Source of the DNA: Bacteroidota bacterium
GTDB lineage: Bacteria > Bacteroidota > Bacteroidia > Chitinophagales > LD1
Reading direction: 5' to 3'
Assembly (NCBI GenBank): GCA_947476645.1
Contig: CANJRM010000006.1
Location: forward strand, 3,146 to 67,145
DNA: 64,000 nucleotides
The notes below the pieces were generated by a model, which made no database searches, was not told where the DNA came from, and saw only the letters and a program-made list of their open reading frames with translations. Below are positions 38,764 to 47,710 of this stretch, in pieces. The position numbers and the translations under genes were made by a program. Each line of letters opens with the position of its first letter. Position 1 is the first letter of the stretch.

Positions 38764-39951
38764 TCAACCCACAAAATACATTTTCAACTTCCCTTTATTC
38801 TTTGCTTCAATCTCTCCACGGTATTCGCAGTTGAATTTATCTTTCACTAAACCATAAGTCGTTTCCGAAATATTGATTTTACCGGCTTCACTATTTTGTT
38901 CCATACGGGCTGCCGTGTTTACCGTATCGCCCCAAATATCATAGGCGAATTTCTTTACTCCTACAATACCAGCAACTACATGACCGGAGTGAATTCCTAT
39001 TCGCACCTCAAACGAATCCGGATTTTCTTTTCTGCGGTTCAACATAAAATTCCTGATTTCAATAGCAGCATTCACCGTGTCTTTTGCATGATTAGGATTA
39101 GCCACCGGCAAACCACTTGCGGCTAAGTAAGCATCGCCTACCGTTTTTATTTTTTCGATGTTGTGCTTATGAAGAATATTGTCGAAAGCACTGAAACATT
39201 CGTTAATCTCTTTTACTAAATCATGTGCCGATAGATTTTCGGCATGCGTAGTGAACCCCTTGAAATCAGTAAACAGAACGGTTACCTCATCAAACTGTTT
39301 AGCATCTGAGTATCCTTTTACTTTCAATTCCTCTGCTACTTCAGCAGGAAGAATATCTAACAACAAACTATCAGAACGTTTCTTTTCCTGTTGTATACTA
39401 TTCATAAACCAGGCAGAAGCGGCAAAAACAACGGTTAAAGAGGTGCCTATATTCATAATATAGAACAGAGTTCTTACGCCATTTGAAACATAAGACTTGT
39501 ACCCTAGCAAAGCCGGTTCAAATACAGCTGACACTACCAGAATGAAAAGAAACATCAGCATCCAGAAAACGGATTGCCTGATAGATAGAAAGATAACCGC
39601 ACCCAGCGGGCCAAGGAAAGCCCATGAAATTACCAAACCGCTTTGGTCCATGCTACCGATAGTCCATTGAATAAATGCTGTCACCCACATGATACACGTG
39701 AGTTGAGCGTAAACCAAAATTTTGTAATTCTTAGAATAGTGTGCAATAACGATTGATGAACCGACCACCCCAACAAATACTAAAGGGAGAAAGGCAATCA
39801 ACCCAATTCCAAAAACATAAACATAGAGCGCGGACCATACGATACCGCAAGCACTGCACATAGAAGCAATCAGCAGTATCAGCAATTTCCGGAAAGACAG
39901 TTCCTGTGAATCGCCTTCTTCTTTAGCAAATAATTTTAGCGTATTAATCAT
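38764..39951 (-). CDS. Membrane-anchored class III adenylate/guanylate cyclase
   Basis: About 6 N-terminal TM helices. Catalytic domain has VTVLFTDFKGFT, KTVGDAYLAASG, RIGIHSGHVVAGIVG and YDIWGDTVNTAARME. Confidence 0.88.
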   Translation of the reverse strand: MINTLKLFAKEEGDSQELSFRKLLILLIASMCSACGIVWSALYVYVFGIGLIAFLPLVFVGVVGSSIVIAHYSKNYKILVYAQLTCIMWVTAFIQWTIGSMDQSGLVISWAFLGPLGAVIFLSIRQSVFWMLMFLFILVVSAVFEPALLGYKSYVSNGVRTLFYIMNIGTSLTVVFAASAWFMNSIQQEKKRSDSLLLDILPAEVAEELKVKGYSDAKQFDEVTVLFTDFKGFTTHAENLSAHDLVKEINECFSAFDNILHKHNIEKIKTVGDAYLAASGLPVANPNHAKDTVNAAIEIRNFMLNRRKENPDSFEVRIGIHSGHVVAGIVGVKKFAYDIWGDTVNTAARMEQNSEAGKINISETTYGLVKDKFNCEYRGEIEAKNKGKLKMYFVG

Positions 39952-39978
39952 TTAGTAAACTATATCGACTGTTTTAAA

Positions 39979-40020
39979 TCAACTCACAAAATACATCTTC
40001 AACTTCCCTTTGTTCTTGGC
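39979..40020 (-). pseudogene. 3'-terminal relic of a second cyclase paralog
   Basis: About 41 of 46 nt are identical to 38764..38808. It encodes AKNKGKLKMYFVS*, compared with AKNKGKLKMYFVG* in the intact gene. No upstream ORF is attached. Confidence 0.6.
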
Positions 40021-40184
40021 CGATACCGGTGAGTTTATTTAGAAAGTTCATCATGCTGGCGAATGTAAAAATTGAAAGACGAAAGCTATTAAAAGTAAGC
40101 TGCCACGCAAAGAATTACTGATTGAAAACTTCATGGCTTTTATCTTTCCATGGTTCAATATATACTTCTAAAATTGCCTGTTAT

Positions 40185-43100
40185 TTACTTCTCAGTTTTG
40201 GTCCTTAGGTTAAGCATGCCTTTCAGCATTTCAACATCTGATGATAGCGAGGCAAACTTCTGTTCCATGCCTTCATTTTTGTGTTGCAGTTCTGTAATCA
40301 GTTTTAATAATTCCTGAGTAGCTGAAATATTTAAAGTTGTCAGTGCTTCGTAATCTACCGCGCGGAAATCTTTTACTTCGTGGCCGTAAACAAATACTTT
40401 TCCATCGCCTTCCAAGTTTACATTAAAGCCGGTGGCATCTGCCGCTGTTACTTCATAAATATCAGTGTTGTGTTCAGTTATCAGTTTCACACGGTCACCG
40501 GTTTTTAATGTGTTTGTAAGTGCAATTCTACAGTTTTTAATATCTGCCAGTTTGTAAATATCGGGCACTACATCAGTAAGCTTAGAAACAGCTGTAGGGT
40601 AAATTTTTTCAACCTCCTGGGCAATTACTTTTTTGTAATTGTTGTTTCCTTTGCCTATGGTATCAATAAACCGGTAGTTGGTAATTTGCAGCTGCATTAA
40701 GGTGTTCAGGTCATCGGCATTATCGGTGCGGCCGGTAATGTGCTTAATACGTGCATCGGAATAGGCATTAAATTCAGTGGCCGCTATTCGGTCGCTGGCA
40801 TAAATTGAATAAGGTGTTGGATTGCCAGCGCCATTTACACCGGTAATGGCATTGGAGTTTAAGTATCCATAGCTGCCTGCATTATAACTTTGATTACCGA
40901 TTACTACCAGTTTAGCCTGTGTAGGGTTGTTAGTACCCATTCCAAAATTTCCGTCAGCGGTAATCCGCATTTTTTCGGTAGCCGAACCCCCGTTTCCTGT
41001 AGCAAAACACATAGGGCCATAAGTGGTAGCAATTCCGGACGAGCCGTTAGGTATGCCAAATACCGTTGCACCGCTCGAATTGCCCAGTAAGTTAATTTCA
41101 CCTCCGCTCTGCGCACCTACCATTAACCGGCCTACACCGGCTGATTGATTGGCATACACCCGTTCGTTTACGGTAGCGGCTGTTTTAAAAATATCTAAAT
41201 CAAATACCGGTTGATTTATTCCCATTCCTAATTTTCCGCCACTGCTTAGTGATAACCGGTTTGTATTGTTTGTATAAAAATCGATACCGAACTGATTACC
41301 GCCATAGGTTCGTTTTGAAGCAATTGCCTCGCCCGTAGTATTATCACCAAATTTTAATGCGTTGGTAGTATTACCGTTGTTCAAATTGTCATGATCGCAT
41401 TTAATACCACCTCCAATTTCTACATTACCGGTAAAGTTGGCGTTACCTTTAACGCTTAACCGGTTAACAGGGTATGAGGTACCAATACCTACATTACCGG
41501 AATTGAAATTACTAATGTCATTACCACTTACGGTCCATTGCAGTAAAGTTGCACTGGTTTGACCCGTAGCCCCGTCCACCGCAAAGCTATAGGTGTCGTG
41601 GCACGTTAAATCTACAATCTGCAAACTTTTTGCAATTGAGGCACCTACATATCCAAAATTACCGGATACTGCGAATGCAGTCGGAGACTGCCCTACGCCT
41701 ACTGAACCTAATACCGAAGGTGCTGCGGGATTGGTTATATCAACTGCCTTCAGCGTATTATCCCCCACGCATGTTACGTAAGCATAATTGCCGGATAGGG
41801 CTACACCGGCAGGATTTTGCCCTATTGCCACTGAACCCACCATAACCGGCAATACCGGATTACTAATGTTAATGACCAGCATACTGGTGTTATTAAGTGT
41901 GTACAGGTAATTACCCGAAAGGGCCGCTCCATAAACACCACCGGTAGCCATAGTGCCTACCACGGCAGGTGCAGCCGGATTGCTGATATTTACCACATAC
42001 AGCGTATCGGTATGAACCAGGTAAGCATAATTGCCCGATAGCACTATCGAAACCGAGCCGAAGAGGTTTCCTGGCATAGATATAGAACCTGCCAAAACCG
42101 GTGAAGCAGGATTGGCTACATCAAATACCTTCAAGCCACAACCCAAATAACTGTTGGCTACATAAACATAATGGCCCGATACAGCCAGGTCACGGGTCCA
42201 GTTACCTGTTGCCACGGAGCCCACAACTGCTGGCGATGAAGGGTTACTTATATTTATTACCCACACGGTATCGAAAGTATTCACATAAGCATAATTGCCC
42301 AATACAGCTATCGACTCGGGACTTATACCGGCATACACCGAACCCATTTGTGTTGGAAATTCGGGGTTACTTATATTTACTACCTGCATGGTGCTATTGC
42401 CAACCGTTACATAAGCATAATTACCCGATATGGCTACTTCCCTTGGTTCACTAACCAAAGTAATTGAACCCACTATGCGCATACCCGGGCATGCTGACAA
42501 AGGTGATGATATCAGAAGGTTAGCCCCGGGAGATACCCAACTTGCCAGCCCACCGGTATCGCTTTGCAATAGGCGACCGGCCCCCTGTGTGCCGTCTTTA
42601 ATGCTTAGCTTTCCATTGATAATTTGATTTCCGTTGTTAGTTTGATTGGCGTTAACTACCAGTTTATTATTATCAAACTCGCCATATATTAAAGGGGCTG
42701 TGGTGTCGCTGTTTTCAATATAAAGGCGGTTGCTGCCCGTTTCGTTGTAACCCGCTTTGTAGCCTAAAAATACATTGGCATTTCCATTACCGGTATACCC
42801 GGAATAAGCACCAACAAAAGTATTGTTAGCCCTGGTGTTATTTAGTGTTGTTCCTTTGCCCGCGTTACTACCTAAAGCCACATTATAGTTACCGCCTAAA
42901 GTCATTCCTGCCACGTAACCTAAACCGGTATTCTCATTACCGGTTTGGCAATATTGTAAAGCACTTCGCCCTATAGCGGTATTGCGCATGCCCGTAACAG
43001 AACGACCGGCATAAGGCCCTACGCCTACATTATCATCACCGGTTTGATTGACATAAAGAGCAGCAACACCGATGGCTACATTCTGGAAACCCGAAGTATT

Positions 43101-44816
43101 AGATGTTCCGGCAAAGCTGCCAAGGAATATACTTCTGGTGTCCATGTTATCATTTATACCGGCAGCCCTACCTATAGCTACTGTTCCATTGTCGGGTACA
43201 TCTATGCGCCCGTGCACCATGGTAAAATATTCTTTTCCGCCCAGTGTAAAATGAATGCTGCTGTCGTTGCTCTGTTCGGTTTCAATACGGGTGGCGCGGT
43301 TGTTGCCGGCAATTAAACTCATAGTATCGTTGCCGCCTGCAGTTACGCTGGCCCATTGGGCATTACCGGCAGCATCGCTTACCAATAATTTTCCTGCTCC
43401 CGCCCCGGTGGTCATTTGAAAATATTTGCTGGTTAAACTGTCGTTTATGGTTAAATGCCTGGTAATAAAATCGCCATAAATAAGTGGCGTTAAGGTTGCA
43501 CTGTTATCTATAAATAGTTTGTTGTTGTTGTTTCCGTTAAACCCTGCACTGTATCCTATTAAAACGTTACCGGTACCTGTGTTGTTGCCGTAACCTGCAC
43601 CATAGCCTAAGAAAGTATTATTTGAACCGGTGGTGTTACTATTCCCTGACCATCCACCAAGCGAGAGATTGTATTGTCCGGTTGTATTATATTGCATGCT
43701 TACATAACCCACAGATGTGTTAGTATTTGTATTGCTGTAAACATCATTCAGCCCTGAATATTTACCCATGTAAACCGAATTACCGGTATTGGTCACTTCA
43801 ATGGTGCCTTTATTCATTTTGAAATATTCTTTACCGCCCAAAGTAAAGTGAATAGCACTGTCGTTTGTCTGCTGTGTTTCAATTCTTGTAGCGCGGTTGG
43901 TGCTGGCTATTAAACTCATAGTATCGTTGCTTCCGCCTGCAGGTAGGGTAACGTTATTGCCTCCCGAAATGCTTAACGAACTGCCATTGATAGATAAGGT
44001 TTGTGCATCGGCACCCGTTGCACCAGTAGCACCTTGAACACCTTGCGCGCCAGTTGCACCTTGTACCCCTGTTGCCCCTGTGTTTCCTTGTGCACCTTGT
44101 GCCCCTGTATTGCCCTGAGCTCCTTGAGCGCCAGTTGCTCCGGTCGTTCCATTTGTTCCTGCCGGTCCTTGTATTAATCCGGCATCTGTCCAACTGCTGC
44201 CAGTCCACACCCACAGATGGCCTGTATCTTGTGTGATATACCCATCACCGTTTGTGTTTCCGGAAGCCGGAAGATTTGCGGACGTTGAAACACTTCCCTG
44301 AATTACAACTGATGTTCCGTTTGCTCCTGTTGCTCCATTGGCACCAGTGGCTCCCGTATTGCCCGTTACACCTTGTAGTCCGGTCACTCCATCAGCACCA
44401 GTGGCTCCGGTGGCACCTGCCGGTGAGTTGGCAGCATATAAGGCATAAGGAACACTCAGCAGTTGTGAGGTGCCCATGTCGGTATAATTACCAGTATTGT
44501 TTATATCGGTTTCTACCTGCAAATACTTTGCTCCGCTGCCCCAGTTTACCGTTGAAAGGTTACCGGTGCTGCCTATCTGCACATTCACTAAGCCAAACTG
44601 ATTAGCGGTGGTGTTGATGGTTTCGGTATAAACCGAAGTGCCCGATGCACTTCCATCATGAATAGTAAAGCGTAAGCTAACCGGTGTGGAGTTAGCTACC
44701 GGCAAGCTGCTGTTATTGCGGACTACAGCCTGGTAGTTCATTTGCTGGGGAACTTGAGCGTAGGAGCAGATAACTAATAACATAGCTATGGCAATAAGTG
44801 GGAGATTTTTTAGCAT
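40185..44816 (-). CDS. Giant tail-fibre-like protein: signal peptide, two collagen-like G-X-T tracts, duplicated modules with YadA-head-like Gly/Asn repeats, ~7 LVIVD repeats and a C-terminal peptidase-S74 intramolecular chaperone domain
   Basis: G-X-Y tracts at 44316..44420 and 44010..44168. Duplicated GGNDTMSLIAxxNRATRIExxQxNDSxIHFTLGGKEYF modules. Repeats of type LSGNYAYV...VxNISNPxxPxxVGS. The S74-like region has YSDARIKHITGRTDNADDLNTLMQLQITNYRF (40188..40760). Confidence 0.85.
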   Translation of the reverse strand: MLKNLPLIAIAMLLVICSYAQVPQQMNYQAVVRNNSSLPVANSTPVSLRFTIHDGSASGTSVYTETINTTANQFGLVNVQIGSTGNLSTVNWGSGAKYLQVETDINNTGNYTDMGTSQLLSVPYALYAANSPAGATGATGADGVTGLQGVTGNTGATGANGATGANGTSVVIQGSVSTSANLPASGNTNGDGYITQDTGHLWVWTGSSWTDAGLIQGPAGTNGTTGATGAQGAQGNTGAQGAQGNTGATGVQGATGAQGVQGATGATGADAQTLSINGSSLSISGGNNVTLPAGGSNDTMSLIASTNRATRIETQQTNDSAIHFTLGGKEYFKMNKGTIEVTNTGNSVYMGKYSGLNDVYSNTNTNTSVGYVSMQYNTTGQYNLSLGGWSGNSNTTGSNNTFLGYGAGYGNNTGTGNVLIGYSAGFNGNNNNKLFIDNSATLTPLIYGDFITRHLTINDSLTSKYFQMTTGAGAGKLLVSDAAGNAQWASVTAGGNDTMSLIAGNNRATRIETEQSNDSSIHFTLGGKEYFTMVHGRIDVPDNGTVAIGRAAGINDNMDTRSIFLGSFAGTSNTSGFQNVAIGVAALYVNQTGDDNVGVGPYAGRSVTGMRNTAIGRSALQYCQTGNENTGLGYVAGMTLGGNYNVALGSNAGKGTTLNNTRANNTFVGAYSGYTGNGNANVFLGYKAGYNETGSNRLYIENSDTTAPLIYGEFDNNKLVVNANQTNNGNQIINGKLSIKDGTQGAGRLLQSDTGGLASWVSPGANLLISSPLSACPGMRIVGSITLVSEPREVAISGNYAYVTVGNSTMQVVNISNPEFPTQMGSVYAGISPESIAVLGNYAYVNTFDTVWVINISNPSSPAVVGSVATGNWTRDLAVSGHYVYVANSYLGCGLKVFDVANPASPVLAGSISMPGNLFGSVSIVLSGNYAYLVHTDTLYVVNISNPAAPAVVGTMATGGVYGAALSGNYLYTLNNTSMLVINISNPVLPVMVGSVAIGQNPAGVALSGNYAYVTCVGDNTLKAVDITNPAAPSVLGSVGVGQSPTAFAVSGNFGYVGASIAKSLQIVDLTCHDTYSFAVDGATGQTSATLLQWTVSGNDISNFNSGNVGIGTSYPVNRLSVKGNANFTGNVEIGGGIKCDHDNLNNGNTTNALKFGDNTTGEAIASKRTYGGNQFGIDFYTNNTNRLSLSSGGKLGMGINQPVFDLDIFKTAATVNERVYANQSAGVGRLMVGAQSGGEINLLGNSSGATVFGIPNGSSGIATTYGPMCFATGNGGSATEKMRITADGNFGMGTNNPTQAKLVVIGNQSYNAGSYGYLNSNAITGVNGAGNPTPYSIYASDRIAATEFNAYSDARIKHITGRTDNADDLNTLMQLQITNYRFIDTIGKGNNNYKKVIAQEVEKIYPTAVSKLTDVVPDIYKLADIKNCRIALTNTLKTGDRVKLITEHNTDIYEVTAADATGFNVNLEGDGKVFVYGHEVKDFRAVDYEALTTLNISATQELLKLITELQHKNEGMEQKFASLSSDVEMLKGMLNLRTKTEK

Positions 44817-44874
44817 GGTATAGTGTTTAATTATTAATTGCTGAATTGCCCGCGAATGTATCTGCTACTCTGCT

Positions 44875-44899
44875 GAAAAAACTTGTCTTAAGACAAGTT
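44875..44899 (-). terminator. Rho-independent terminator of the Crp-family gene
   Basis: Perfect 20-bp palindrome AACTTGTCTTAAGACAAGTT, followed by TTTTT on the minus strand. Confidence 0.7.
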
Positions 44900-44917
44900 C
44901 GGAGAGATGTTGGGAAT

Positions 44918-45496
44918 TTAACTTTTAGCCAGTCTCGCCCTTATGCGCGAAAGCGAAGTATCGGTTATAGAGAGGTAAGAAGCCAGGTCTTTCTGTTTTA
45001 TCCTTTGTTCGAGATTGGGATAAGTATTGCGGAAATGGAGGTAACGTTCTTCGGGTGTATTTACAACAAGGAACCGGATACGCTCAGCGGCTTCGGCAAT
45101 AATTTGCTTATAAAGTTGATTGACCATTTTCTGAATACGGATGTTCTTGTCCGTTACCTTCTCCAATTCTCTTGCATCTGCGCAAAGCATCAGCGTGTCT
45201 TCCATGGCCACAATGTTTTCATCAGCAGGTTTACCCAACAGGGTAGTTTGCAAGGCACCTGAATTCATTTTCTCAGGTACAAACAACAAAGCCTTTTCTA
45301 CTCCTTCTTCATCAATGATGTAATGATACAAGAGCCCCTTCAATACTTTTACTGCGTTGTAATTATACTCGCCCACCTTTACCAGGTGTTCTCCTTTTTT
45401 GAGTTGCTTGATTTTAATAATAGAAGCGAGCTCGACCAAATCATTTGGACCGAGAAAGGTAAACTGACGGAATGCTTCTTTTATTTCTTCGAACAT
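44918..45496 (-). CDS. Crp/Fnr-family transcriptional regulator (cNMP-binding domain plus HTH)
   Basis: About 192 aa from MFEEIKEAF, with a beta-roll region and C-terminal HTH (QKDLASYLSITDTSLSRIR). Confidence 0.8.
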   Translation of the reverse strand: MFEEIKEAFRQFTFLGPNDLVELASIIKIKQLKKGEHLVKVGEYNYNAVKVLKGLLYHYIIDEEGVEKALLFVPEKMNSGALQTTLLGKPADENIVAMEDTLMLCADARELEKVTDKNIRIQKMVNQLYKQIIAEAAERIRFLVVNTPEERYLHFRNTYPNLEQRIKQKDLASYLSITDTSLSRIRARLAKS

Positions 45497-45580
45497 ATTG
45501 TTATAGAATCTGCTTTTGTAAATCTTCAAAATACATTTTCACCTACTCTTATATCTTCGCCTCCTCAAAACTAAAATACT

Positions 45581-47710
45581 ATGTCACAAATTGCCACTAT
45601 CGAAAAAAGAAATAACGGAGTAGCCATTGTTTGGCTCGACCAGCAGAACGAAAAGATTAATAAAGTATCGCTGGAGTTTGTGGAAGGCATTGATAAAATA
45701 TTTCAGGAACTGGAAAACGATAACTCGGTTAAAGCTGCGGTTATTATCAGCAAAAAGAAAGACTGGATTGCCGGTGCCGATATTGAAATGTTTGGCAAGG
45801 TGAAACAGAAGGGCGATTTTATTCAGTTTACCCGCAACGGCCATGTGTCGTTAAACAAATTAGAGAAAGGAAAGAAACCGGTGGTGGCTGCAATCAACGG
45901 TGCTTGCCTTGGTGCAGGAACAGAAATTGCCTTGGCTTGTCATGGTCGTATTGTTAGCGATGATAAGAGCACACACTTTGCTTTGCCTGAAGTTATGCTC
46001 GGCTTGTTGCCTGGTGGTGGGGGTACTCAACGTCTTCCGCGTTTGATAGGAATACAGAAAGCACTCGACATGATGCTGACCGGTAAAAAGATTTACGGTA
46101 AAAAAGCAAAGAGCATTGGTCTTGCCGATAAAGTAACGAACAAAGAAAGTTTGTTGAACGCAGCTATTGATTTCGCTTTGCAACTCGCCAACAAACCTTT
46201 AGTACGCGAAGACAAAAGAACTTTCGTTGAAAAATTTTTAGAGAGCAATCCATTAACGCGCAGAATAATTTACAGCAAGGCAAAGGAGATGGTGATGAAA
46301 CAAACGCAGGGAAATTATCCTGCGCCTCTTCGCATTTTGGAATGTGTGCAGATAGGAATGGAAGAAGGAATGGAGCGCGGGCTCGATGCCGAAGCGGTGA
46401 AGTTTGAAGAATTGATTTTGACAAACGAGAGCCGTCAGTTGATTCGCATTTTCTTCAACATGACCGAGAAGAAAAAGAACCCGTATGCAACGGACTTGAT
46501 TAAATCTACCGATAACATTGCCATGATTGGCGCGGGCTTTATGGGTGCAGGCATTGCACAAGTGAGTGCGGTGGACGGAATAAATGTTTTGCTCAAAGAC
46601 ATTAAAGAAGAAACGCTTCAACAAGCCAAGCAAACTATATGGAGCGATTTAGCCAAGAAGATTAAACGCAAAACCATGACTCAGCCCGAGGCAGAGCAAA
46701 TAGTTAACCGCGTTCAATCGAAATTGGATTACAATGGCTTTGATAAAGTTGACATTATTGTTGAAGCGGTGTTTGAAGAAATAAAACTGAAGCAACGCAT
46801 AGTAGCTGATTGCGAAGCAGCTTCTTTACCTAACACTATTTTTGCAAGCAACACTTCTGCTCTTCCAATTTCACATGTGGCAGAAAAAGCAGCGCGACCT
46901 GAGAACATTATTGGTATGCACTACTTTTCTCCTGTTCCCAAAATGCCTTTGCTCGAAATTATAAAGACACCAAAAACTGCCGACTGGGTTACGGCTACTT
47001 GTTTTGAACTCGGCATTCGTCAGGGCAAGACTTGCATTGTAGTGAATGACGGCCCGGGCTTTTATACCACACGTATTCTGGCGCCTTACATGAACGAATG
47101 TTTCCTCTTGATAGAAGAAGGTTGCGAAGCAGGCTTTATTGACAAAGCGATGAAGCAATGGGGTTTCCCTGTGGGACCTGTGACTTTGCAGGATGAAGTA
47201 GGCATTGATGTAGGCGCGCATATTATGAAAGGCGAGCTTGCCGAAATGGCGAAACTGCGCGAAGGTGCACGCACCAGCGATGCTATTTTGAAAATGTTTA
47301 ACGATGGTTACCACGGCAAGAAGAACAAGAAGGGCATGTATAAATATGATGAGAAAGGAAAGAAGCAGGGCATTAACGAAGACATCTACAAATACTTCGG
47401 TAATCCTAAACGCAAAGAGTTTACGATAGAGACTATACAGAACCGCATGGGCATGATGTTCCTGAACGAGTGCCTGCACTGTCTGGAAGAAAATATTTTA
47501 GAAAGCCCTACCGATGGCGATGTTGGTGCAGTGTTTGGGTTAGGCTTTCCTCCGTTTACCGGTGGACCTTTCCGTTATCTGGACCACCAGGGTGCTGATA
47601 AAATTGTTGCGCTGATGGAAGACTTATCTTCTAAATACGGTGCGCGCTTTAAGCCCGCTAATATTTTGAAGGAGTATGCGAAGGAGGGGAGGAGGTTTCA
47701 TGCTAATTAA
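45581..47710 (+). CDS. Fused enoyl-CoA hydratase / 3-hydroxyacyl-CoA dehydrogenase (FadB/FadJ type)
   Basis: Crotonase N-terminal part (AAINGACLGAGTEIALAC), a Rossmann motif IGAGFMGAGIA, and 3HCDH C-terminal domains. 709 aa. Confidence 0.9.
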   Translation: MSQIATIEKRNNGVAIVWLDQQNEKINKVSLEFVEGIDKIFQELENDNSVKAAVIISKKKDWIAGADIEMFGKVKQKGDFIQFTRNGHVSLNKLEKGKKPVVAAINGACLGAGTEIALACHGRIVSDDKSTHFALPEVMLGLLPGGGGTQRLPRLIGIQKALDMMLTGKKIYGKKAKSIGLADKVTNKESLLNAAIDFALQLANKPLVREDKRTFVEKFLESNPLTRRIIYSKAKEMVMKQTQGNYPAPLRILECVQIGMEEGMERGLDAEAVKFEELILTNESRQLIRIFFNMTEKKKNPYATDLIKSTDNIAMIGAGFMGAGIAQVSAVDGINVLLKDIKEETLQQAKQTIWSDLAKKIKRKTMTQPEAEQIVNRVQSKLDYNGFDKVDIIVEAVFEEIKLKQRIVADCEAASLPNTIFASNTSALPISHVAEKAARPENIIGMHYFSPVPKMPLLEIIKTPKTADWVTATCFELGIRQGKTCIVVNDGPGFYTTRILAPYMNECFLLIEEGCEAGFIDKAMKQWGFPVGPVTLQDEVGIDVGAHIMKGELAEMAKLREGARTSDAILKMFNDGYHGKKNKKGMYKYDEKGKKQGINEDIYKYFGNPKRKEFTIETIQNRMGMMFLNECLHCLEENILESPTDGDVGAVFGLGFPPFTGGPFRYLDHQGADKIVALMEDLSSKYGARFKPANILKEYAKEGRRFHAN

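Follow-up and report, generated by a model that had tools for sequence, protein, structure and literature searches.

We analyzed a gene in a 64-kb stretch of DNA from an uncultured lake bacterium of the Bacteroidota (contig CANJRM010000006.1, hereafter the window), and our results lead us to propose that this gene, a single open reading frame (ORF) of 1543 codons at positions 40185-44816 of the minus strand, probably codes for a Bacteroidota protein from the superfamily of mosaic adhesive trimers (MATs), belongs to the group of MATs that end in a Peptidase_S74 (S74) domain, and gives rise to an adhesive trimeric surface fiber. An earlier note on the same DNA had described the product as a cell-made, tail-fiber-like protein that combines collagen tracts, a propeller, and a self-cleaving chaperone domain. 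That reading is supported in part: these modules are borne out below at the level of sequence, and what the note missed is the N-terminal domain (N-domain) that is the hallmark of the family. Judged by its sequence, the protein is most likely interesting but not of a new kind, being a new member of a known, barely studied family.

Probable membership in the MAT superfamily

The MAT superfamily was defined by Caulton et al. (2024, Nat Microbiol), who described 21 fibers in Bdellovibrio bacteriovorus HD100 (PMC10769870). All MAT fibers have mosaic tips and a conserved, β-rich domain of ~130 amino acids (aa) immediately after the signal peptide, and 13 of the 21 HD100 proteins end in an S74 domain with the motif SDxxxK. 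The fibers are displayed on the surface of the predator, and one of them, Bd3182, cleaves itself at S782, a reaction that is blocked by the mutation S782A. The MAT N-domain has no homologue in the PDB, and the authors propose that it binds to a surface element. Their Table S3 lists members from the FCB (Fibrobacterota-Chlorobiota-Bacteroidota) group, among them a protein of Saprospiraceae that is called "collagen-like" and one of Dokdonia that is S74-like, and the main text mentions neither collagen nor propellers (PMC10769870).

The domain that follows the leader of the studied protein is homologous to the Bdellovibrio domain by two comparisons. A profile of 43 Bacteroidota N-domains matches the N-ends of seven long ORFs in B. 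bacteriovorus Bd5 (E values of 2e-6 to 5e-4), five of which also carry a C-terminal S74 domain (PF13884), and hhalign aligns the Bacteroidota and Bdellovibrio N-domain alignments over the whole domain (98.0% probability, E value of 2.8e-13, 111 columns). By our reading of the sequence, a signal peptide stands immediately before the domain. In the genome from which the window comes, the domain heads 13 ORFs with a conserved N-end and diverse tips, the C-terminal heads of the paralogs being S74, C1q, BclA_C-like, phage tail Collar, and unassigned domains. Since the N-domain homology, the leader, the mosaic paralogs, and the S74 domain were all found, the protein has each property of a MAT fiber that can be checked in a sequence.

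The likeness to Bdellovibrio MATs such as Bd3182 thus extends from the signal peptide and the homologous β-rich N-domain through the tail-fiber-like modules to the C-terminal S74 domain with SDxxxK, and it includes the many paralogs with a common N-end and differing tips (13 here, 21 in HD100). The differences lie in the N-domain, which is shorter here (~113 versus ~130 aa, with 24% identity between the profiles), in the true collagen G-X-Y stalk and the seven-bladed LVIVD propeller that precede the distal part, and in an insert of ~70 aa within the S74 domain. The host differs as well, being a freshwater Chitinophagales-like bacterium that is not a known predator, and the protein studied here is known from sequence alone.

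An AlphaFold2 model of the N-domain is a six-stranded β-sandwich with a short helix, at a predicted local distance difference test (pLDDT) score of 89. Neither the PDB nor BFVD yielded a close fold to Foldseek, which returned generic Ig-like sandwiches only (TM ~0.5, E values of >5e-4) and therefore gave no functional lead, and the copies of Pfam-A, NCBIfam, and PHROG that we searched hold no match to the domain. By its profile, the domain nevertheless appears to define a very large unannotated family whose members carry it nearly always right after a signal peptide: among 1.84 billion representative proteins the profile matches 29,565 at E values of ≤1e-3 and 23,991 at ≤1e-10, and the domain begins at residue ~20-28 in almost all of the 150 relatives listed. 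It is present in 47 of 201 sampled Bacteroidota genomes (28 of 109 genera), and in congeners of our bacterium the whole protein finds as many as 65 partial matches, mostly to its N-terminal ~170 residues. The carriers include cultured Pedobacter (Pedobacter agri and Pedobacter zeae) and an assembly labeled Fluviicola taffensis, so that the docking partner and the export of the trimer could be approached in tractable bacteria that are not predators.

Domain architecture

The modules of the protein are listed in Table 1 together with the surrounding features. The earlier note had given the reading frame correctly and omitted its strand; the plus-strand reading of the same positions was rejected for its many stops.

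TABLE 1 Features of the fiber gene, its surroundings, and related loci (positions are those of the window unless a contig is named)
Feature	Residues	Position	Strand	Remarks
Adenylate/guanylate cyclase gene		38764-39951	minus	Neighbor of the fiber gene
Variable cassette (fiber gene and Crp-like gene), 5.5 kb		40021..45551		Bounded by a presumed cyclase 3' remnant (39979-40020) and the fadB-like promoter region
Peptidase_S74 intramolecular chaperone (predicted)	1353-1543	40188..40760	minus	SDARIK motif; ~70-aa β-rich insert 1411-1487; helix 1489-1534
Distal fiber segment	1081-1352	40761..41576	minus	Runs up to the predicted scissile bond Y1352|S1353
LVIVD β-propeller	790-1080	41577..42449	minus	Candidate ligand-binding domain; 7 blades
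Shaft module B	~494-764	42525..43337	minus	Longer copy of module A
Shaft module A	~294-493	43338..43937	minus	GSNDTMSLIA…IHFTLGGKEYF…Gly/Asn repeats…LFIDNS…AQWASVTA; PHROG tail protein matches
Collagen-like tract 2	217-270	44007..44168	minus	18 uninterrupted G-X-Y triplets
Non-collagen linker	170-216	44169..44309	minus	Contains GDGYITQDTGHLWVWTGSSWTDAG; within PHROG tail-fiber families spanning 120-490
Collagen-like tract 1	134-169	44310..44417	minus	12 uninterrupted G-X-Y triplets
MAT-type N-terminal β-sandwich (predicted)	21-133 (113 aa)	44418..44756	minus	NYQAVVRN...SVPYALYA; proposed cell-proximal docking end
Sec-type signal peptide (predicted)	1-20	44757..44816	minus	MLKNLPLIAIAMLLVICSYA; read by eye; predicted cut before Gln21
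Crp/Fnr-like gene, 203 aa		44918..45529	minus	Directly upstream of the fiber gene; cNMP_binding E value 5e-4, below cutoff
Other 12 N-domain ORFs		Contigs C1, C2, C16, C26 (two), C28, C32, C36, C51, C69, C112, C163		
Carriers of the second leader domain		P0122, P0128, P0133, P0139, P0140, P0157, P0202; paralog at C7:59092-59274		

The leader has a basic n-region, a hydrophobic core, and an Ala-x-Ala-like SYA, after which Gln21 is the predicted +1 residue, followed by VPQQ (QVPQQ). Gln21 and Pro23 are nearly invariant among 41 homologues, and the Sec signal peptide claimed earlier thus agrees both with our reading of the sequence and with its conservation. The two collagen-like tracts, which had been put at ~12 and ~18 triplets, are exactly that, and both are uninterrupted; Pfam Collagen (PF01391) matches at 52 bits against a cutoff of 27. 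The G-X-Y runs are long enough to qualify as collagen repeats, and a triple helix is predicted for them. Pieces of other contigs cross-match tract 2, as is to be expected from paralogs.

Behind the collagen part lie two shaft modules that are an internal duplication (BLASTP E value of 3e-28), as the earlier note had seen; the duplication was detected by splitting the protein, since a BLAST search of the whole protein against itself gave the identity match alone. A phage tail-spike family, phrog_4636, matches module B at residues 545-656 (E value of 1.8e-11). The YadA-head-like repeats that had also been proposed for this part found no support, in that YadA_head (PF05658) does not match the protein even at an E value of ≤1; Pfam gave no C-terminal membrane anchor domain either, and YadA_head is present in only some of the homologues and paralogs. 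The Collagen, LVIVD, and Peptidase_S74 models, which the earlier note had named for a hidden Markov model search, all scored above their Pfam cutoffs, and all modules C-terminal to the N-domain have relatives among the phage tail-fiber and tail-spike families of PHROG.

The S74 chaperone domain

Pfam places Peptidase_S74 (PF13884) at residues 1353-1410 with 28.3 bits against a cutoff of 22, and the SDxxxK motif reads S1353-D-A-R-I-K1358. Among 24 homologues, S1353 is kept in 21 and K1358 in 20, the Ser, D1354, R1356, and the Lys each being found in 20 to 22 of them. Both halves of the region align to the ICA domain of MyRF (7dc3), with S1353 at MyRF position 587, which is an Ala mutant in 7dc3, and K1358 at K592. 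The AlphaFold2 model of residues 1360-1535 has pLDDT values of 70 to 90 and shows a 46-residue C-terminal helix (1489-1534) as a coiled-coil candidate. Together with the Ser/Lys dyad and the Pfam score, this helix agrees with the S74 region followed by a coiled coil that had been read from the letters. Between the catalytic part and the coiled coil lies a β-rich insert of ~70 aa, which is conserved in this S74 subfamily.

In MyRF, mass spectrometry places the cut between P586 and S587, and cleavage, which occurs N-terminal to the Ser, depends on trimerization by a C-terminal triple coiled coil; residues S587 and K592 of MyRF correspond to S911 and K916 of endosialidase NF (endoNF) (PMC8326128). 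Because of the homology to the SDxxxK dyad of MyRF and endoNF, we predict a cut at Ser-1353, the autocleavage bond should be Y1352|S1353, and cleavage would release a chaperone of 191 aa.

The S74 chaperones of phage tail spikes and tail fibers (endoNF of phage K1F and pb1 of phage T5) and the MyRF ICA domain, to which the direct sequence match is made, resemble our domain in the Ser/Lys dyad with its S(+5)K spacing, in a C-terminal helix that could build a triple coiled coil, and in their position at the end of a β-rich fiber. Unlike them, the protein studied here has a Sec-type leader, lies among cellular genes, and carries the additional β-rich insert before the coiled coil.

The propeller and the distal segment

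Residues 790-1543 were modeled as a monomer from an alignment of the 24 homologues. About seven LVIVD-type repeats had been counted earlier, and two lines of evidence support a propeller: LVIVD (PF08309) matches in six stretches between residues ~800 and 1075 (151 bits, E value of 4e-45), and the AlphaFold2 model of residues 790-1080 has pLDDT values of >90 and 28 strands that form seven four-stranded blades. The propeller fold is thus confirmed at the level of the model. Foldseek returned only generic seven- and eight-bladed propellers (BamB, WD40, and YbhE-type lactonases; E values of ~1e-12, 10-16% identity), and no function follows from these matches. In PHROG, the propeller region is matched by phrog_22523 (E value of 6e-28).

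The distal segment contains three G-N-V/F/L-G-I/M-G-T…P…L motifs, at residues 1107, 1194, and 1289, is matched by the tail-fiber family phrog_1980 (E value of 6e-9), and is conserved in the 24 homologues.

Proposed working of the fiber

Our results lead us to speculate on how such a fiber may work. Sec would export the precursor, and the leader would be cut before Gln21. By homology to endoNF, MyRF, and Bd3182, three chains would associate via the S74 C-terminal coiled coil and possibly also via the N-domain and the collagen tracts. In a correctly folded trimer, Ser1353/Lys1358 would cut Y1352|S1353, the 191-aa chaperone would leave, and a mature chain of ~1332 aa would remain. The N-terminal β-sandwich may hold the fiber on a common cell-surface element, as the MAT authors propose for theirs, and the two collagen segments and the two duplicated β-rich shaft modules would give reach and flexibility. 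At the far end, the three LVIVD propellers and the distal tip, which may be β-helical, would attach to a ligand, which is probably a glycan on the surface of another cell or particle.

Consistent with a trimer are the two G-X-Y tracts, the low-confidence distal segment, and the 46-residue C-terminal helix. Several points weigh against an adhesive trimeric MAT fiber. Trimerization, self-cleavage, surface location, and ligand binding, all of which we infer, are argued entirely from homology; the S74 Pfam score is modest (28 bits); and residues 1081-1355 are modeled at low confidence, as one would expect of an intertwined trimer that was modeled as a monomer. The Bd5 ORFs are taken as MATs because they fit the definition, rather than locus tag by locus tag; as the bacterium is not a known predator, its fiber may have another role than Bdellovibrio MATs; and no RNA runs containing the gene were found. 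Finally, the route across the outer membrane and the retention on it are explained neither by a C-terminal sorting domain of the type IX secretion system (T9SS) nor by a conserved partner of the paralogs, as neither was found.

As for the first of these, Pfam finds no T9SS C-terminal sorting domain (CTD; Por_Secre_tail or type B) in the protein. As for the second, no recurrent or conserved neighbor gene lies beside the 13 paralogs. On contig C28, an N-domain/collagen paralog (C28:~560-2600) has directly upstream of it, on its own strand, a small ORF (≤188 aa, C28:308-514) that ends in a T9SS sorting domain; this is the only paralog with such an ORF directly upstream, and none adjoins the studied gene. 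The genome (3.56 Mb, ~90% complete) holds at least 150 matches to Por_Secre_tail, the mark of T9SS cargo, or about one per 24 kb, and the other cases in which a CTD gene lies near a paralog are therefore as expected by chance. We also observed a partial ORF at the end of contig C103 (C103:11425-11610) in which an S74 domain and a coiled coil are followed by a weak T9SS CTD (23 bits, below the cutoff). If this sorting domain is real, self-cleavage would separate the fiber from its sorting signal.

These gaps in the export route would also fit a MAT-like protein that is exported but serves chiefly for something other than adhesion, be it a protein released into the medium, a surface decoy or shield against phages, an enzyme propeller, or a protein whose S74 domain stays uncleaved. 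The protein has no recognizable outer-membrane anchor or T9SS signal, the relatives of the propeller found by Foldseek include enzymes (6-phosphogluconolactonase-type and phosphotriesterase propellers), and presence that varies between strains, as described below, is also typical of phage-interaction genes. We nevertheless consider such a role unlikely. The enzyme matches are generic, at 10-16% identity, and to our knowledge no catalytic residues are known for LVIVD propellers. The Ser/Lys dyad is kept among the homologues, and an N-domain that is conserved, together with tips that vary, marks a presentation system (PMC10769870).

A fiber probably made by the cell

Each module after the N-domain has tail-fiber or tail-spike relatives in PHROG, S74 is the classical module of phage tail spikes, the gene sits in a strain-variable cassette, and fibers of extracellular contractile injection systems (eCIS) that carry S74, or a β-propeller together with collagen, have been catalogued (PMC12923769). 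The protein might therefore be thought to be the tail fiber or receptor-binding protein of a prophage, tailocin, or eCIS, assembled in the cytoplasm on a particle that is encoded elsewhere. We regard this as highly improbable. The Sec-type leader is conserved across the family, and fibers of particles that are assembled in the cytoplasm need none. No phage genes were found in the window, neither in the 40 kb to one side of the fiber gene nor in the 19 kb to its other side. The neighbors of the gene encode the cyclase, the Crp-like regulator, and FadB-like, TonB receptor, GNAT, AhpC-like, GH125, and similar proteins, and T9SS sorting domains and CarboxypepD_reg/TonB receptors mark the DNA as that of a Bacteroidota. 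A prophage or tailocin cluster just beyond the window had been named in the earlier note as a finding that would speak against a cell-made fiber, and Phage_sheath_1 has no match in the ~90%-complete genome.

The 13 paralogs lie scattered over the genome, beside cellular genes as well. Their N-domain lies outside PHROG and occurs in only three loci of 2.9 million viral contigs; the two of these loci that were translated both bear leaders, so that their products would be exported as well. The leader, the lack of phage genes in the window and of a sheath gene in the genome, and the position of the N-domain outside PHROG together lead us to favor a MAT-type fiber made by the cell over a phage part, in agreement with what had been claimed before. 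The eCIS fibers share with it the repertoire of collagen shaft, propeller, and S74 domain. They carry eCIS baseplate-attachment (eBAP) N-domains, however, and sit in eCIS operons (PMC12923769), whereas the protein studied here has a Sec-type leader and a MAT N-domain, in a genome without a sheath gene.

Integrity of the gene

The gene at 40185-44816 is real and intact. In four metagenome runs from lakes or fresh water, which belong to two studies, positions 39700-45619 lie on one contig of 6.0-6.2 kb, with 0 differences and 0 gaps, and because single contigs from independent runs span the region identically, the gene is not an assembly chimera. A chimeric join of paralogs in this metagenome-assembled genome (MAG), by way of their shared N-domain or collagen repeats, or else a decaying pseudogene, could be suspected in a family with so many paralogs and such mosaic members: the databases searched gave no full-length orthologue, their best matches cover ≤49% of the protein, and the collagen tracts show cross-matches to short pieces of further contigs. 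Given the identical contigs, which hold the whole gene, and a 4.6-kb frame that is open, with all domains intact and the catalytic residues conserved, the chance of an artifact of either kind is close to negligible.

The nearest public relatives are lake Chitinophagales/Bacteroidetes MAGs, and a sequence search of the PDB with the whole protein gave matches by collagen composition only. A scan for a sigma-70 promoter and a terminator gave a result no better than shuffles. The GC content is slightly higher within the gene, a rise that its Gly/Ala/Thr-rich composition could explain.

A variable cassette and its possible significance

Together with the Crp-like gene, the fiber gene forms a cassette that is subject to presence/absence polymorphism among co-existing strains. 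On one side, the cassette abuts 42 bp (39979-40020) that we take to be a repeat of the 3' end of the neighboring cyclase gene. In an alternative contig from the same lake metagenomes, positions 39986-40020 are joined to 45552-45619 through 1817 other letters, and in one run this alternative allele is deeper than the fiber form (42 versus 12). None of five congeners has the fiber gene or the Crp-like gene beside its FadB-like orthologue. Because of the alternative contig and of these congeners, we regard 40021-45551 as a cassette that only some of the co-existing strains carry at this position.

The cassette has probably replaced a second cyclase paralog, which would be consistent with the tandem cyclases of congener G002, where the order is fadB, cyclase, cyclase. 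No place was found in the congeners for a 30-letter end of this alternative allele. The Crp-like gene is present in a single copy in the genome and is contiguous with the fiber gene in four assemblies, and it may regulate the fiber.

The finding extends the MAT fiber family from Bdellovibrio to abundant freshwater Bacteroidota and brings in two modules that the founding paper's main text does not mention, namely, a stalk of true collagen repeats and an LVIVD propeller. For LVIVD repeats, for which we know of no function, this provides a testable setting, in that they may be the part with which a surface fiber binds. The cassette polymorphism in this one lake population further suggests that such fibers contribute to ecological differences at the level of strains. 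Going further, we tentatively put forward a broader view, which we hold to be possible rather than probable: MAT-type fibers may be a very large and mostly unannotated surface-presentation system of Bacteroidota, not a speciality of predators, in which the N-domain docks interchangeable phage-derived heads, including collagen-stalked LVIVD propellers, on an outer-membrane element, and in which cassettes of fiber and regulator are swapped between co-existing strains. If this is true, the swapped cassettes would set the strain-specific attachment to algae, particles, or prey, or the exposure to phages.

Recurrence of the architecture

Many Bacteroidota proteins with a leader share the unit formed by the propeller, the distal segment, and the S74 domain with its insert (residues 790-1543), with 33-41% identity over 88-100% of it, and several of these proteins are annotated as "tail fiber domain-containing protein." The one related hint at surface display that we found is through this label: a protein that bears it has been found in outer-membrane vesicles of Tannerella forsythia (PMC10682907). 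In uncharacterized proteins with LVIVD and S74, such as P0122, P0160, and P0136, the C-terminal unit is the same, all have leaders, and shuffling has affected the N-terminal halves. Collagen, LVIVD, YadA_head, and S74 occur together in P0029 and P0062, so that at least two proteins have collagen, LVIVD, and S74; they differ from ours in module order, the YadA-like repeats following the propeller there.

As LVIVD with S74, and collagen with both, recur in uncharacterized Bacteroidota proteins, the combination is not unique. The novelty that the earlier note had implied for a propeller on a collagen stalk was therefore overstated, considering also that the MAT superfamily is published and that eCIS fibers with a propeller and collagen are catalogued (PMC12923769). 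In the literature searched, we found no characterized S74 or collagen fiber from Bacteroidota.

The collagen-like surface proteins of other bacteria (Scl1/Scl2 of Streptococcus and BclA of Bacillus) likewise use a collagen stalk to present a globular domain on the cell surface. The similarity in NCBIfam is weak and runs via the collagen part (42 bits against a cutoff of 400), and a further likeness to BclA-type proteins is that paralogs in our genome carry BclA_C-like and C1q heads. In contrast to these proteins, ours has no LPXTG anchor or exosporium leader, comes from a Gram-negative host, and has different end domains.

Many of the relatives use a different leader domain, and this points to shuffling of modules. 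This second type, AQ(N)VGIGT..P..SAMLDV..KG(L/V)LIPR, heads many of the fibers with LVIVD and S74 in place of the NYQ domain and coincides in these matches with the precomputed annotation label PF26696. A motif similar to it, GNVGIGT…P…L, recurs inside the distal segment of the studied protein. The same unit of propeller, distal segment, and S74 domain was also seen in P0162, a protein of 1014 aa from a Verrucomicrobiae MAG (33% identity over 99% of residues 790-1543), whose N-domain is more divergent (NYQGRI…SVGYALTA), and this suggests that the module set is spread across phyla.

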